From assembly GCA_963723515.1 (NCBI GenBank), contig CAVRQT010000003.1:1017088-1081087 (forward strand): a stretch of 64,000 bases of DNA, given 5' to 3'. Shown piece by piece: positions 18,001 to 24,000 of this stretch. Position numbers: made by a program. Source of the stretch: Vulcanimicrobiota bacterium. Lineage in GTDB: Bacteria > Vulcanimicrobiota > Vulcanimicrobiia > Vulcanimicrobiales > Vulcanimicrobiaceae. Every line of letters starts with the position of its first letter. Position 1 is the first letter of the stretch.

Positions 18001-21000
18001 TTGCGAATTGCGGCGAGCTCCGCCGTCGCTGAGGAAAGCTGATCGATAACGCGCGCTTCCGCTTTGACGCCCGAGCGTCTCGAGCAGCTCTTCGAATGTA
18101 GCGCTCGCGCACCGGAGCATTCGCCGTCGTGTCGATACGCAGAGCATTGCGGCCCGCCAAAACGCCAAAGGGTTCCGGCCGTTTCGCGCGCGGCGAGAGC
18201 AGATCGCAAAGCACCAGCGTGTTCCCCTCGGGCGTCTGCTCGGCGACCTCCCACAACTCTCGACGTAACGGCGTCTTCATCGTTTGCGCGTCGGTCACGA
18301 CAATCACGCGCCGGTCGGCCAAGAACGGCATCGCGCTCACCGCCTCAGCGATGCGCGCCGTATCTTCGATCTCGGGGCCGTGAAAGCGGTCGACGTTTAG
18401 CGCTCGCGCCTCGGCCGGCAGCGCGCGATCGAGCAGAAGTTCCAAGGCGCGTTCGGCCAACGTGCGTTCCGTGCCCTCGATGATGACGAGCTTTGCGAGC
18501 TTCGGGGCCTTGTCGATGAACTCGTAGTACTTCATGCGAACGCTGCGACGCTGGGGCGATTCGCGAGATCGCGGAATTGATTCCGAGTATGGCGGTTGCA
18601 GAATTCCGTATTCGGTGATGAAGGCCGTAATCAATCGCGCCGGCGTCACGTCGAACGCCGGATTGTAGGCGCGCGTACCGCTGTCCGTGCTCGAGGCGCC
18701 CGCGAAGGTGCGAACTTCATCGCCGCTGCGCTCTTCGATCGGAATCTTCGCGCCGCTTTCCAGCGTCAAGTCGAACGACGAGCGTGGCGCGGCAACATAA
18801 AACGGAATGCCGTGATGCGCGGCCGCGATTGCGAGCCCATAGGTGCCAATCTTATTTGCCGTATCGCCATTGCGCGCGATGCGATCGGCGCCGACGATGA
18901 CGAGGTCAACGTTTTTTTGCTGCATCGTGACGGCTGCCGCACTGTCAACGATCAGCGTCGCATCGATTCCGGCGTGCTTTGAGCTCATACATCGTTAGGC
19001 GAGCGCCTTGCAGCAGCGGTCGCGTTTCGCAGGCGTAGACCTGCAAGATTCTTGTGAATCTTGCCGCGGCAATAATCGCGCCCAGCGCCGTTCCGCCGCC
19101 GGCGGTTGCGATTGGGCCGGTATTGCAATGCGTCAAGACGCGCGACACGCCTGAAAAGATGGGCAACGCCGCTTCCGCGATCAGGCGGTCGATCGCGCGC
19201 TGCTCCTCGTGGATCGCATCTGCCTCGGCCAACATATCTTGCGCAGCGCAGTACCCGATCCACGGCCCAACTCAAATTCACGGCCGTCGGCCGCGCGATG
19301 CGAATGCGCTGCACTGCGGCATTGAACTGATCGTCGTCTGTGATGTTCCGGCGCAACAGCACAACCGCATAAGCGCCGAAAACACCGAGCGCGGGCGCGC
19401 CACGAATTGCCAAGCTCTTGATCGCCGACTCGAACTCGTCAACGGTCTGCGCGCGAACGACGACCGTTTCGTGCGGCAAGCGACGCTGATCGAGATATTC
19501 GATCGCATCGCCTGCCCAACGTAACGCTTCCTTCACGCCGGAATTTGCAAGACGCTCGCGGCGGCCATCGCGCGCAGCATAGCCTTTGTTGCCGCGTTTC
19601 GGATCGGCACGCTCCGCGGCTTGTTCGTACGTATTCGGTCGTGAGAATGCCGAAGCCGATTGGACGTCCGGTTTCCAACTGCACGTTCATCAGCCCGCGC
19701 GCACATTCGGCCGCGATGTACTCAAAATGCGGCGTCTGGCCGCGAATGACGGCGCCGAGCGCGACAAGGCCATCGCAGCCGCCCGCGAGCGATAACGCGC
19801 GCGGCTGCGATCGGCAGTTCAAAGCATCCGGCGACGTCGTAGGTCGTGACGTGTCTCGATGCCGCGCCGCACTCGTGCAGTGCAGCCTTCGCGCCTTCCA
19901 AGAGCTGATCCGCAAGATCCGGATAAAAGCGTGCGCAGACGACCGCAATGCGCTTTCCGCGAAGACTGTAGCGCTGCTGCTGTGCAGCATGCTTCACTGC
20001 GAGACGGCTTCCGCCGAGAAGAGATGTCCTAACTTCGAACGTTTGGTTTCGATGTAACCGGAGTTAAACGCAGTCGGCGGCGGTTTGAATCGGGACGCGG
20101 TCGATGATGCGCAAGCCATAGCCCTCCAATCCGAAAATCTTCTTCGGGTTGTTCGTCATCACGCGCATTTCGCGAACGCCAAGATCGAAGAGAATCTGGG
20201 AGCCGATTCCGTAGTCGCGTTTGTCAATGGGAAGTCCGAGCGCCACGTTGGCCTCGACGGTGTCCATGCCGCGATCTTGCAATTCATAGGCGCGCAGCTT
20301 GTTGGCAAGGCCGATGCCGCGTCCTTCTTGGTGCAGGTAGAGAAAGACGCCGCGCCCTTCCTCGGCGATCATGGCCAGCGCGCCGTCGCGTTGTGCGGCG
20401 CAGTCGCAGCGGATTGAATGCAACGCATCGCCGGTGAGACATTCGGAATGCACGCGAACGAGGATATTCTTGCCGTCGCCGATCTCGCCCATAATCGCCG
20501 CCACGTGGGTCAAGCCGTCGATCGCGCTTTCGTACGCAACGCCTTGAAAACTGCCGAACGTCGTCGGCAATGCGAAATCTGCAATGCGCTGCACGAGCTT
20601 TTCATTACGCATGCGATAGGCGATCAAATCTTTGACGGTGATGAGGCGCAGATGATGGTTCTTTGCAAAGACGCGCAGCTTGTCGAGACGCGCCATCGTG
20701 CCGTCATCCGCCATGATTTCGCAGATCACGCCGGCGGGATAGAGGCCGGCAAGTCGAGCGAGATCAACGGCGGCTTCAGTTTGTCCCGCGCGCACGAGCA
20801 CGCCGCCGTCGCGGGCTCGCAACGGAAATGTGTGGCCCGGCCGCAAGAAATCGGCTGGACGTGCATTCGGATCGATGAGCGCGGAAATCGTCGCGGCGCG
20901 ATCGTAGGCCGAGATACCGGTCGTCGTTCGGCCACGCGCTTCAACGGAGATCGTGAACGCCGTTTCATGGACGGCGGTGTTTTCGGAAACCATCTGCGGC

Positions 21001-24000
21001 AGCTGCAGCTCCTCGAGCCGCTTGCCGGTCATCGGGACGCAAATCAGGCCGCCGGCTTCTTTGCGCATGAAGTTGATCGCTTCGGGCGTGACCATCTGCG
21101 CAGCCATGACGAGATCGCCTTCGTTTTCGCGATCCTCGTCATCGAGCACGACGACCATCTTGCCGTCGCGGATATCTTTGATAGCAGAGTCGATCGTGTC
21201 GAATGCCGATGCGTCCGGTGGCTTCGCTAAGTCGGGCAGCACCGTCGAAAGGCGCTGCAGCGAGCGGAACGACGGCTCGCGCTGGCCCGAGCGGAGGTAG
21301 GAAATCGCGGATTCTGTTAAGCCGGAGCGCTCGGCCAGCTCGGCCGCGTTGAGGCCGGCGGCATCCATGGCGGATTTGAGAGCGTCAGCGAAGGTGAGCG
21401 GCACGGAAATTTAGCGTAGGACGCGACTTAACAGATGTCAACTACCTAGGTGTGACGTGAGCCACGCACCTTCTGTCACGCTGAGCTTGTCGAAGCGCCA
21501 CCGCCGATATGAAAGAGCCGCCCGTTAAGGGCGGCTCACGCTGCTGGTAGCAGTAGCACCGTCTTGACTATCATACCACAGCGGAGCCGCGGTTGGAGGT
21601 TACGGGAATCGAACCCGCCAGCCGGCATTGACGGTGCTACTGCTGCACCAGCAGAACCCCCGACTGTTCAATCACGGCCCAACCGACGCTGCCAAGTGGC
21701 GTAACGATTCACATGATCTGCGTGGCGTGACAGTCACGCGCCTCTCCTACGGCCTGGGCGCTGCTCGGGACAAGCGCAAAGCGTAGCGTGACGCAGTAGC
21801 AAACATCGCCCAATGACCACGTTGCTGCAGCGATGGAGATGGCGGCCGGCAGTCGTCATCTATGGCGCCGGCATGCTGCAGGGCTTTGCCTTCACGCTCG
21901 TGCCGGCGTTGGCAACGGTCTTCGCGGCGGCGCCGTATCACATCAATTCACGCGGCTTCGGCATTCTTTTCATTCCGCTGACCGTCGGCGCAATTATCGG
22001 CGCTGCCTTAACGCCGAAACTCGCGGCGAAAACCGACACTGTAACGGTATTGCGCGCCGGCGTTGCTGCCAACATCGCCGCGCTTGGTCGCGCTTCTGAT
22101 CGCCTCCACGAACGCCCGGCAGCGCTGCTTATGTCTTGCTGCTCGTTGATACAACCGCGCTTGGCCTCGGCTTCGGCCTCAATTTCTCGGCGGTCAACGA
22201 GCTTGCATCAAAGCTCTCAGCCAACGAAACGGCTTCCGTCACGATCGCCAACGTTCTCACCGGCCTCGGAACGAGCTTGACGCCGATTATTCTCGGCGCA
22301 TTTATCGTCCGTTACGCGTGGTGGCTATGGCCGGCGCTGCTGTTGATCGCGTTCGCTGCTGTGCTCGTGCTCTCGTCGCGCTGGCGCGAAGCTCGATCGT
22401 CTTCAATCGTTCGTGCGCGCGGCGTTTCACGAACGCTCGATCTTGTTCGGCGTCGCCGCGCTGCTCTACGCGTTTTGCGAAGGAACGTTTTCGAGTTGGG
22501 CAACGACGTTTGCGCACCTCGATCGCGGTTTCTCGCTCGCTACGGGAGAGGCGGCGCTCACCGCTTTTTGGCTCGCGCTGACCGTAACACGCTTAGCGCG
22601 CCGCATTCGCGACGCGCGTTGTGCCGCCGCGCACGGCGTTCGTCATCTTTCCGGTTCTTATCGCTGCGGCGTTCTTCTGCTTGCCGCTCTGGAAAACCGC
22701 AACGCTGCTCGTCGTCGGATTCGCGCTCGGCGGCGTCGCCTGCAGCATCGTCTTCCCATTTGCAATGTCGTTGGCGCTCGATGCGATGCCCACTGATGCC
22801 GATCGCGTCGCCGGCGTTATGGTGGCGGCGCTGATGACGGGCGAAGGGTTCGGAACGTTCCTTGTCGGCGCACTGCACTCTGACGCGCATCTGTCGCTTG
22901 CGGCGATCTACCGCATCGCGGCCGTCGTTGCGTTCGCCTTGGCGATCGTCTCAATGCTTGCCCGAAGCGCCTCTCGCGAAAGTGCGGTGAACGTCAGATC
23001 GTAAACGCGGGCCTGCCCTGGATCGAGAAACGGCAGCATGCGATGCGCTAAGCGCATACTCGCGTCCTTGAATCGCCGCGGTATTGGCCGGCTCGACCGA
23101 CATCACGTAATCGCCGAAGTCCAACTTGCGCCACGTAAAGAGCGCGGGCAGCGCGTTTGGATCGAACGCGATTTCAAATCCGAGTCCGGCGCCCTCCAGC
23201 AACTCTTCATTGGACGATCGCAGCGCGGGCTTTGAGATCGGCGCACTCGCGCGGCTTATGAATAAAGACTTGCTCCGCGAAGCCGGCCTGCGGCTCGCCG
23301 CCGCGATCCCACACAGATAATCCCGCCTGCGCTTGCGGATCGCGCGGCTCAACGTTCGTATGCGAGACATGAACGCGCGTCTGCGCGTGAGAGCAGCGGA
23401 AAGCCGGCGTTGCAATGGTAGAGGATCATGTGCGGCGTGCGCGTGCCGCCCTCATTGATGACGACGTCGCGCAAATGGAGCGTCGCGCTGCCAAGTTCGG
23501 TCTGCCAGCGCCGATGCAGCACGAGCTTTTCGCCGAGCGCTTTCGTTTCACGCATCCGTCCCTCGACCTCAAGGATGCAACGATCGCCATCCCAGTACGT
23601 CTTCGTCGAGTAGTTTTCGCGCCGGCAGATTGTTGATGCGGCCGTGCTGCCCAAAGGTTCCCCACTGATCGCTACCCGGCGGCCCAAAATTTGCTAGCCC
23701 GCAAGTCGTCAGCCAACCGCCAAAAAACGAACGCAGCCATTCATCGCCCGCGGCTTCGTAAAACGCCGGCGCCGCGATATCGTTTGCGCTGCGCCAAACG
23801 AACGGCGTGCCGCGATATGCTGCATGCGCAATATCAAGCGCGCGATCGATGACGATCTCGACGGAGAGCACGCCGGTATCGACGCGCACCGCGCGGACGC
23901 CGCGGCCGCGACCGGACGCATACTCAAACTCCGTGATTCCGCCGACCTGCGCCAGCGAACCAACGCGCGCTTGCAGGTCGTCGCGCGTCAGTTTTTCACC

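Follow-up and report, generated by a model that had tools for sequence, protein, structure and literature searches.

We analyzed a 64,000-nucleotide window from a Vulcanimicrobiota genome (here G000), in which the entry enzyme of riboflavin synthesis is joined to a DNA-binding domain in one open reading frame. As assembled, this HTH-RibBA gene runs from 20064..21404 on the reverse strand (as do all features described below), starts with GTG and encodes 446 amino acids. Read from the N-terminus, the protein consists of a helix-turn-helix (HTH) of the XRE/Cro-C1 type (residues 5-56, 21237..21392; assigned from Pfam HTH_3 and AF2 helices), a linker that differs in both length and sequence among 29 relatives (residues 57-70, 21195..21236), a DHBP synthase or RibB domain (residues 73-263, 20616..21188) and a GTP cyclohydrolase II or RibA domain (residues 273-438, 20091..20588), the last two assigned by Pfam, NCBIfam and Foldseek. 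The next gene of the operon is ribH (lumazine synthase, 19533..19997). As context, ribD (28389-29420) and ribE (27685-28368) occupy 27685..29420, 6 kb upstream of ribBA.

Architecture of the fused protein

The first-pass annotation had described an XRE-type HTH fused to RibBA at this locus, and our searches bear this out in a single frame. The HTH_3 match covers residues 9-56 (E 1.4e-8, 35 bits against a gathering cut-off of 23), and the two enzymatic matches are essentially full length: DHBP_synthase at residues 73-263 (E 1.1e-89, profile positions 2-191 of 191) and GTP_cyclohydro2 at residues 273-438 (E 8.5e-67, profile positions 2-165 of 165). The RibBA equivalog NF006803 scores 598 bits over residues 66-443, above its cut-off of 569, which places the protein among the RibBA enzymes, and the best Foldseek match of the enzyme part is RibA2 of Mtb (4i14, 47% identity). 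Two motifs, DDEDRENEGD and RPGHTFPL, are invariant, and a third, usually written GHTE, reads GQTE here and throughout the source genome's own family and the unfused relatives discussed below, with the exception of G003. All three are putative catalytic motifs of RibBA. G000 yields no other ribBA match and also has ribD, ribE, ribH and ribF, which argues that the fusion is the working RibBA enzyme of this organism.

The gene caller's own start is M13, which would give a protein of 434 amino acids. We argue for the GTG start instead, because the invariant residues F5 and L9 lie upstream of M13. In the AF2 model, helices at residues 5-16, 20-27, 31-39 and 46-55 and a short fifth one (pLDDT 87-91) form what is predicted to be a compact, all-helical, lambda-repressor-like fold; in the linker, pLDDT is below 50 at residues 61-66. 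The nearest solved sequence is the N-terminal domain of the phage 434 repressor, a weak match (E 0.001, about 23 bits), and a search of G000 for paralogs of the domain gave none, the runner-up reaching an E of 0.069. Purifying selection acts on the HTH domain: its dN/dS is 0.17, while the enzyme domains have values of 0.08-0.10 and the linker one of 0.43, and F5, L9, G28, T30, E31, A33, I34, S35, R42 and P44 are invariant.

The 3′ end of the gene is a different matter. Relative to the congener G001 there is an extra base at approximately 20083..20083, which shifts the frame and removes about 24 codons of a conserved C-terminal tail; relatives encode 466-486 amino acids. The tail, N..Y..TKR.K.GH, is missing from the assembled frame yet kept in 11/11 relatives read; its loss is probably an assembly error. 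The 446-residue length noted in the first pass holds for the frame as assembled, but the gene itself probably does not stop at 20064. Downstream, ribH has three more single-base insertions compared with G001 and is broken up into three frames, giving four single-base indels within about 520 bp around the 3′ end of ribBA and ribH. With ribBA and its neighbors frameshifted in G000, this copy may be misassembled or decaying.

Distribution of the fusion and of FMN riboswitches

The fusion occurs in 108/112 genomes of the family to which the source genome belongs, in 3/3 of a sister family and in 0/15 of the next family, and none of the phylum's other families sampled has it; these counts reproduce and widen the earlier report that family relatives share it. 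In a smaller set of relatives, the HTH part is present in 23/24 members of the same family (the 24th, G023, has its gene cut by a contig end), in 5/5 of the sister family and in 0/11 of the next one. Among loci from further species, 78/80 carry the fusion and the remaining two are cut at contig ends. Three members of the source family, G109, G165 and G179, do not have the HTH, which is therefore dispensable. All 15 genomes of the next family have an ordinary, unfused ribBA, and no stand-alone copy of the HTH was found in genomes of that family or in G165. Together with the lack of a paralog in G000, this leaves no other candidate binder for the promoter dyad described below. The sources use the names Baltobacteraceae, Vulcanimicrobiota and Eremiobacteraeota for these organisms, which belong to the Eremiobacterota, an uncultured phylum from soil.

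Textbooks present bacterial riboflavin synthesis as the prime example of control by riboswitch. A search for the FMN riboswitch (RF00050) found none in 41 genomes and none in 141 genomes of the phylum (0/41 and 0/141, with 7/14 controls positive) and none between 19000 and 22500 of the window at E<=10, in agreement with the first-pass annotation. The absence is far older and wider than the fusion, because it extends phylum-wide (0/141) and includes the 15 genomes with unfused ribBA. The tie between the fusion and the missing riboswitch is thus loose, and that part of the earlier proposal of protein-based control loses ground; what strongly favors a regulatory role, on comparative grounds, is the genome-unique promoter dyad and the apparently leaderless mRNA described below, together with the HTH dN/dS of 0.17.

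The ribBA promoter and its dyad

Upstream of ribBA we find a 14-bp dyad, TTGACATCTGTTAA, at 21428..21441, a candidate operator whose left half is the -35 hexamer (21436-21441). A -10-like hexamer, TACGCT, follows at 21413..21418, separated by 17 nt from the -35 box and by 8 nt from the GTG start. This box is conserved as TAnGCT, 6-8 nt before the ATG or GTG (most commonly 6 nt), in 11/12 loci, the remaining one (L012) having no clear TAnGCT. TACGCT agrees with the E. coli consensus TATAAT at just 3 of 6 positions, which is why a strict sigma-70 scan calls no promoter at ribBA. Because the -10 box sits only 6-8 nt before the start codon, the ribBA mRNA is apparently leaderless, with no space for a riboswitch; its transcript would begin at the start codon or within 2 nt of it, which would put control at the promoter and not in a leader RNA. 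Further upstream, a sequence scan picks out a terminator-like hairpin at 21515..21537 that would insulate ribBA from upstream transcription.

The dyad, which is newly described here, has the consensus TTGACAnnTGTYAA at fused ribBA genes. In a first set it is present at 29/29 fused loci (21 exact), and in a second at 80/80 (52 exact, 27 with one mismatch and one with two), giving 109 fused loci in sets that overlap in part, all with the candidate cognate site on the ribBA-ribH promoter, ahead of genes of the enzyme's own pathway. Its distance to the start falls inside a 13-nt range at 77/80 loci and is further off at the other three. Coding control stretches contain none (0/76), even allowing three mismatches. 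The right half-site, TGTnAA, lies in the promoter spacer and equals the -35 hexamer in information content, a figure inflated by choosing sites by best match. Since the left half-site doubles as a perfect -35 box, conservation of that half of the 'operator' would be expected anyway.

The 2.11 Mb of G000 contain one exact dyad, in G007, G016 and G051 the sole exact dyad adjoins ribBA, and in G005 and G010 there is no exact copy and the ribBA sites are one base off; a reversed-pattern control gives 0 in these last five genomes. No dyad was found before ribD-ribE, only at ribBA-ribH, so this is not a whole-pathway regulon. In G109, which has lost the HTH, the promoter is kept as TTGACA-N17-TAGCCT-N6-ATG and the right half-site is gone. 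Residue 36 of the recognition helix (Y or L) is concordant with operator position 12 in 65/77 rows, an apparent co-variation that draws on 3-4 independent contrasts and is not significant.

A possible trigger enzyme at its own promoter

How might these elements work together? Catalytic and DNA-binding domains in one polypeptide, the combination that marks a trigger enzyme, are found here, and we put a probability of roughly 0.65 on HTH-RibBA being a self-repressing bifunctional trigger enzyme that acts on its own promoter. In this mechanism the RibBA part would catalyze the two entry reactions of riboflavin synthesis, and the protein is expected to be a dimer, by analogy with solved RibBA and DHBP synthase structures. 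Such a dimer would have a pair of N-terminal HTH domains of the XRE type with which to contact the 14-bp dyad. In the ribBA-ribH promoter this dyad takes in the -35 hexamer and the beginning of the spacer, and its center is about 28.5 bp from the start on the upstream side. A protein bound at this place would keep RNA polymerase out, and HTH-RibBA would thereby shut down both itself and lumazine synthase. The fusion, its conservation, and the dyad with its position and genome-wide uniqueness are observed; DNA binding, dimer geometry and repression are what we infer, and the comparative data would take us to autoregulation at most. That a substrate, a product or a flavin on the enzyme part alters DNA affinity, and so provides metabolic feedback, is speculative.

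One variant of the self-repression reading, counted inside its probability, is a plain negative autoregulator that steadies the RibBA level and reduces noise but senses no metabolite, so that there is no feedback by riboflavin or FMN. We regard this as possible but doubtful. It fits the restriction of the dyad to ribBA's own promoter, the position of ribD-ribE outside the regulon, and a protein with no ligand-binding domain besides its two catalytic ones; on the other hand, the trigger enzymes BirA, NadR and PutA couple DNA binding to ligand state. In the archaeal regulator RbkR the kinase domain is described as doubling as the sensor domain (PMC5397151). A more radical alternative is that the HTH does not read the dyad at all, TGTnAA belonging to an unusual kind of promoter or being bound by a regulator encoded elsewhere, and the HTH a relic, a protein contact or an aid to solubility. 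Half of the dyad is indeed the -35 box, and G109, G165 and G179 live without the HTH. We nevertheless consider it unlikely, given the constraint on the HTH relative to the linker and the invariant core of its recognition helix, the spacer half-site in every one of the fused loci (overlapping sets) against none in the controls, and the parallel loss of HTH and right half-site in G109; a global promoter element or global regulator would also not be expected to leave a dyad unique to the ribBA promoter.

The sign of regulation could also be the opposite, with HTH-RibBA activating at the dyad, for instance by helping RNA polymerase onto a promoter whose -10 is weak. The poor -10 hexamer would suit this, as would the Wolbachia proteins treated below, stand-alone binders of the ribA promoter that activated a reporter (PMC3518464). 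Yet a perfect TTGACA with a 17-nt spacer needs no activator, the dyad occupies -35 to -22, and G109, which retains the promoter, presumably still expresses ribBA although its HTH is gone; we judge activation quite improbable. Sites at -35 to -22 fall within the footprint of the polymerase, the classic position for a repressor. Finally, the window is rich in single-base indels, with the four at the ribBA 3′ end and ribH, so a small HTH gene could in principle have been joined to ribBA by an assembly or sequencing error. We reject this as next to impossible: more than 100 genomes, each assembled independently, have the identical single open frame, with no stop or start between the domains and no start codon ahead of the conserved helix at the N-terminus of the DHBP synthase.

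It is useful to set the proposed self-repressing HTH-RibBA beside known systems. Dimers of the 434 repressor recognize a palindrome of 14 bp. This repressor is the best solved sequence match of our HTH, itself an HTH_3 domain, and our candidate site is likewise a 14-bp palindrome over a promoter; unlike it, HTH-RibBA has no C-terminal oligomerization or peptidase domain, and the partner of its HTH is a 380-residue bifunctional enzyme. The FMN riboswitch (RFN element, RF00050) controls rib genes, including ribB and ribBA, by flavin supply, but it is RNA-based and acts in the leader, of which there is apparently none at ribBA here. The classical bacterial trigger enzymes BirA, NadR and PutA resemble HTH-RibBA in combining a catalytic and a DNA-binding domain in one polypeptide and, if our proposal holds, in repressing their own pathway; they are other enzymes with other DNA-binding folds in other pathways, and ligand-dependent DNA binding is established for those three. 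All three are named as trigger enzymes in PMC5397151.

The same source describes RbkR, an archaeal riboflavin kinase and regulator discovered, in the way used here, through comparative genomics, with autoregulation predicted in many genomes (PMC5397151). Like HTH-RibBA, RbkR is a riboflavin-pathway enzyme with an N-terminal DNA-binding domain in organisms without FMN riboswitches. It differs in being archaeal, with a winged HTH on a CTP-dependent riboflavin kinase that stands at the pathway's end and binds FMN, and in controlling several rib and transporter operons, whereas HTH-RibBA is bacterial, carries an XRE/Cro HTH on the first pathway enzyme and has its own operon as sole candidate target. 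Membership in the RbkR family can be rejected, since the domains here (HTH_3, DHBPS, GCHII) are not homologous to those of RbkR; HTH-RibBA may still work like it. In Wolbachia, the protein transcription factors wBmxR1 and wBmxR2 bind the promoter of ribA (RibBA), but they are stand-alone proteins, with a type IV secretion operon also under their control, and activate a reporter (PMC3518464). In open-access papers and bioRxiv we found neither a bacterial transcription factor dedicated to the riboflavin pathway nor an enzyme-regulator fusion for it. Tentatively, and with more doubt than belief, HTH-RibBA could be the first bacterial regulator of riboflavin synthesis that is a protein and responds to a metabolite, a counterpart of RbkR of independent origin in a phylum where searches gave no FMN riboswitch, and in which the entry enzyme's substrate or product occupancy, or a flavin, would act through the XRE domain to gate a leaderless promoter.

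For this lineage, the finding means that one order of the phylum carries a repressor-type domain on its first riboflavin enzyme and a matching candidate operator on that enzyme's own promoter, a compact system in which a single protein, a single 14-bp site and a single promoter suffice. Should binding be modulated by the enzyme part, the few known trigger enzymes would gain a new kind of sensor module, and there would be an example of how a lineage can make up for the control that a missing riboswitch leaves undone.

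A helix-turn-helix domain on RibBA

HTH-RibBA is encoded by an ORF at 20064..21404 on the minus strand, which opens with GTG and yields 446 amino acids. The first-pass annotation described an XRE-type HTH fused to RibBA, and this description is both confirmed and strengthened by the Pfam domains and by the conservation of the fusion. HTH_3 lies at residues 9-56 (E 1.4e-8, above the gathering score), and the same ORF product carries DHBP_synthase at residues 73-263 (E 1.1e-89) and GTP_cyclohydro2 at residues 273-438 (E 8.5e-67). The NCBI equivalog model for RibBA, NF006803, scores 598 bits against a cut-off of 569 over residues 66-443, leaving the N-terminal 65 residues without model coverage. 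In an AlphaFold2 model, which we rely on for the HTH and linker only (full-length mean pLDDT is a mediocre 67, from an input alignment of 30 rows), residues 5-55 form four helices with pLDDT 87-91 and residues 61-66 are disordered. Among solved sequences, the HTH comes closest to the phage 434 repressor's DNA-binding domain (E 0.001), and Foldseek places the enzyme part beside M. tuberculosis RibA2 (4i14). The HTH is under purifying selection, with a median dN/dS of 0.17; the linker has 0.43 and the enzyme domains 0.08-0.10, all rough figures because dS is saturated. The recognition-helix core, T30-E31-x-A33-I34-S35, does not vary.

Within the enzyme part, the usual DHBPS motif G-H-T-E (window ~20781-20792, residues 205-208) reads G-Q-T-E, a substitution at what we take to be a metal-ligand position. 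It occurs in all genomes read from the window's own family (f1) except G003 and in all those read from the next family of the same class (f3), and the more distant f11 has GHTE; the substitution is class-wide and unconnected with the HTH fusion.

Across the 40 nearest genomes, the HTH is joined to ribBA in 23/24 of f1, 5/5 of the sister family f2 and 0/11 of f3. In a wider, evenly drawn sample of 201 genomes of the phylum, the match begins at residue 3-5 in 108 of 112 matching f1 genomes, in 3/3 of f2 and in 0/15 of f3; in other families no match starts before residue 34 among the matches listed (24 minor matches stand besides). Fusion and operator counts take in the unpublished genomes G009, G020 and G022 (loci L019, L033 and L004), the f3 counts include the unpublished G036, and the f1 count of the wider sample includes the unpublished G193. 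Of the four f1 exceptions, G109, G165 and G179 are genuinely without the HTH; we do not accept G023 as fusion-free, since a contig end cuts its gene. A quick maximum-likelihood tree built from the enzyme part (32 rows, SH-aLRT support only) unites f1 and f2 in one clade (support 92) and places inside it both G109 and the G165+G179 pair (support 96); one gain followed by two losses is the simplest history. Genome G029 has a fused HTH-DHBPS start, cut off by the end of its contig, together with another ribBA copy that is unfused and 65% identical (contigs C96 and C136; loci L035 and L036), and the unfused copy may be contamination (3% by table) or a paralog.

The carriers appear in their sources as Candidatus Baltobacteraceae, Rubrimentiphilum, Cybelea, Tumulicola, Tyrphobacter and Aquilonibacter, under the phylum names Vulcanimicrobiota or Candidatus Eremiobacteraeota. 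A pattern scan of 185,579 species genomes returned 214 relatives of the HTH, and the best 80 of the 214 bear an Eremiobacterota-type name or no taxon, bar two automatic labels of other phyla. The loci L117 and L139, with fusion and dyad, come from MAGs whose records are headed 'Candidatus Acidiferrales' and 'Verrucomicrobiia'; both headings are probably wrong, and L139 matches a contig of G024, a member of the window's family according to the genome collection. Among 1.84 billion representative proteins searched with HMMER, all 9 close relatives of the HTH that reach 118 aa or more (57% identity or higher) are HTH-DHBPS fusions, and shorter ones are HTH-only pieces, possibly fragments. The ESM Atlas has two mixed clusters, labelled 'commonest Pseudomonadota', with HTH_3 in 33% and 16% of members, a possible lead to unrelated HTH-RibB fusions in other phyla. 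As far as seen, HTH-RibBA is confined to one order of Eremiobacterota.

As assembled, the copy in the window's own genome is frameshifted. Relative to the congener G001, whose protein is 90% identical, it has four single-base insertions in ~520 bp: the one near 20083 closes the RibBA frame too soon, at the cost of the conserved tail (without this base the frame is ~24 codons longer and regains a G001-type tail), and the remaining three break ribH. Other genes of the window are likewise split between frames (16840-23004 and 28307-29420: purB, the mtnA/holA region, ribH three times, the ribBA tail, an MFS transporter and the ribD tail), through single-base insertions wherever the congener can be aligned. 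Such splits fit an unpolished long-read assembly and may also be genuine genome decay; the completeness of this genome is given as 88%. We reject misassembly as the source of the fusion because the frame is open in more than 100 genomes; the N-terminal fusion is independent of this genome.

A dyad within the ribBA promoter

Beyond what the first-pass annotation contained, we find a promoter that bears a dyad, a candidate operator, at 21441..21428 on the minus strand (TTGACAnnTGTTAA). In 12/12 loci first examined, cTTGACA-nn-TGT(T/C)AAG stands upstream of the start codon, with TAnGCT 8-9 nt past this block and ATG or GTG 6-8 nt further on. By sequence, TTGACA, the 17-nt spacer and TAnGCT read as a -35/-10 pair whose -10 box is of the TANNNT kind. 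A strict E. coli-type scan finds 0 promoter sites here because TACGCT shares just 3/6 positions with TATAAT. With the start codon so close to the -10 box, the ribBA mRNA would be leaderless or nearly so, which would leave no space for a riboswitch.

The spacer of ordinary promoters is not conserved. Here TTGACA-nn-TGTYAA forms an inverted repeat of 14 bp whose left half is the -35 box and whose right half-site sits in the promoter spacer; in several genomes, as at loci L004, L011, L020 and L030, its symmetry is perfect. The dyad is found at 29/29 fused loci (exactly at 21, with one mismatch at 4, two at 3 and three at 1) and at 80/80 further loci, from species in the genome collection (exactly at 52, with one mismatch at 27 and two at 1); the two sets overlap in part, leaving 95 distinct HTH/operator combinations. 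At 77/80 of the further loci the distance to the gene start falls within a 13-nt range, the other three lying further away. Control stretches 600 nt inside the coding region match in 0/76 cases, even when three mismatches are allowed.

The window's own genome, 2.11 Mb long, has a single exact match to the pattern, against ~0.15 exact hits per genome expected by chance (arithmetic from base composition). In three relatives (G007, G016 and G051) the sole exact site adjoins ribBA, and in two others (G005 and G010) there are zero exact sites because their ribBA sites are one base off; the reversed pattern gives 0 matches in these five genomes. A wider regulon can be rejected: ribD and ribE, 6 kb upstream of ribBA in the window, have no dyad in front of them, and the lone one-mismatch site in the window's own genome, C2:111434, falls inside an ORF and looks like chance. 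In relatives ribH directly follows ribBA and overlaps its tail, and since the dyad occurs only at ribBA, the candidate target is the ribBA-ribH unit.

Upstream of ribBA the gene neighbourhood differs from genus to genus. A dispersed repeat with CTTCGACAAGCTCAG in it is present in 141 copies in the 2.1-Mb genome (at most 1 mismatch), 18 of them in the window (21481, 29538, 29650, 2590, 30303 and others); copies are intergenic, some of them directly upstream of the ribBA promoter and in front of ribD, and a similar motif also lies upstream of ribBA in G017 (L007). The stretch 21595-21661 on the minus strand closes with what resembles the T-arm and acceptor 3' strand of a tRNA (GGTTCGATTCCC...), and a terminator-like hairpin comes after it at 21515-21537. 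ARAGORN reports no tRNA or tmRNA in this intergenic region and Rfam only a weak tRNA-Sec-like match (22.6 bits, E 0.31); it may be what is left of a tRNA gene, or a former integration site. Divergent from ribBA is an MFS transporter gene (21813-23004, plus strand), split over three frames, which is also found in the congener G001 and is absent from other genera. In G010 and G007 (loci L010 and L011), ribBA faces a divergent TetR-family gene with an MFS transporter, and the gap between them holds a perfect inverted repeat of 13 bp, ACATACTTGAAACG..CGTTTCAAGTATG, some 60-90 nt upstream of the ribBA dyad; the repeat is probably the operator of the adjoining TetR.

Autoregulation and the riboswitch

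How far can the HTH be tied to the dyad? The window's own genome has no HTH paralog (the next best match has E 0.069), and no stand-alone copy of the HTH is found in four f3 genomes or in G165. In G109, which has lost the HTH, the -35 box, spacing, -10 box and leaderless layout are kept and the right half-site is gone, with 2/6 positions left; only one such case is seen. Across 77 rows, the state of residue 36 (Y or L) agrees with that of operator position 12 (T or not T) in 65. The trait changed four times on the tree, leaving 3-4 phylogenetically independent contrasts (sign test p at least 0.5), so this association shows nothing and we reject it as evidence. Residue 43 gives a similar hint with operator positions 6 and 9, in one clade only.

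The absence of an FMN riboswitch (RF00050) from this lineage, claimed in the first-pass annotation, holds in every sample: none is found in the window, in 41 near genomes or in 141 genomes sampled across the phylum, and in each of the two genome searches 7/14 control genomes were positive (filters were stricter beyond 40 genomes, and many genomes searched are incomplete MAGs). It extends to f3, where ribBA is unfused, starts MPLATIEEAI... and directly follows ribE. The loss or lack of the riboswitch thus predates the fusion and is much older, and the fusion came later, as the solution of one lineage, and does not replace the riboswitch one for one.

The architecture, its conservation and the position and uniqueness of the site are direct observations; from them we infer that a dimer of HTH-RibBA would bind the dyad, at about -35 to -22, and repress ribBA-ribH by excluding RNA polymerase. 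Dimerisation would run through the enzyme part, by analogy with solved RibBA and DHBPS dimers. The site's position, on a promoter whose -35 box fits the consensus and whose spacer measures 17 nt, favours repression over activation. Of the earlier proposal that the HTH regulates its own pathway, autoregulation is supported by the conserved, genome-unique dyad at the ribBA promoter, and metabolite feedback is unproven; if the ligand state leaves DNA affinity unchanged, the circuit would be a simple homeostat of enzyme level.

The closest analogue is RbkR, an archaeal riboflavin kinase fused to a winged HTH (PMC5397151); the same paper lists BirA, NadR and PutA as bacterial trigger enzymes. With each of these four HTH-RibBA has the principle in common and no domain. 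Excerpts of a 2025 review of riboflavin regulation name for bacteria the FMN riboswitch and RibR only, with 0 hits for 'RbkR' or 'helix' in that text (PMC12542839). In Wolbachia, the factors that bind a ribA promoter are stand-alone, whereas the HTH of HTH-RibBA is fused to the enzyme (PMC3518464). Full-text searches of open-access papers and bioRxiv returned no description of the fusion or of riboflavin regulation in Eremiobacterota. HTH-RibBA would be a new example of the trigger-enzyme principle, with enzyme and DNA-binding domain in one protein.
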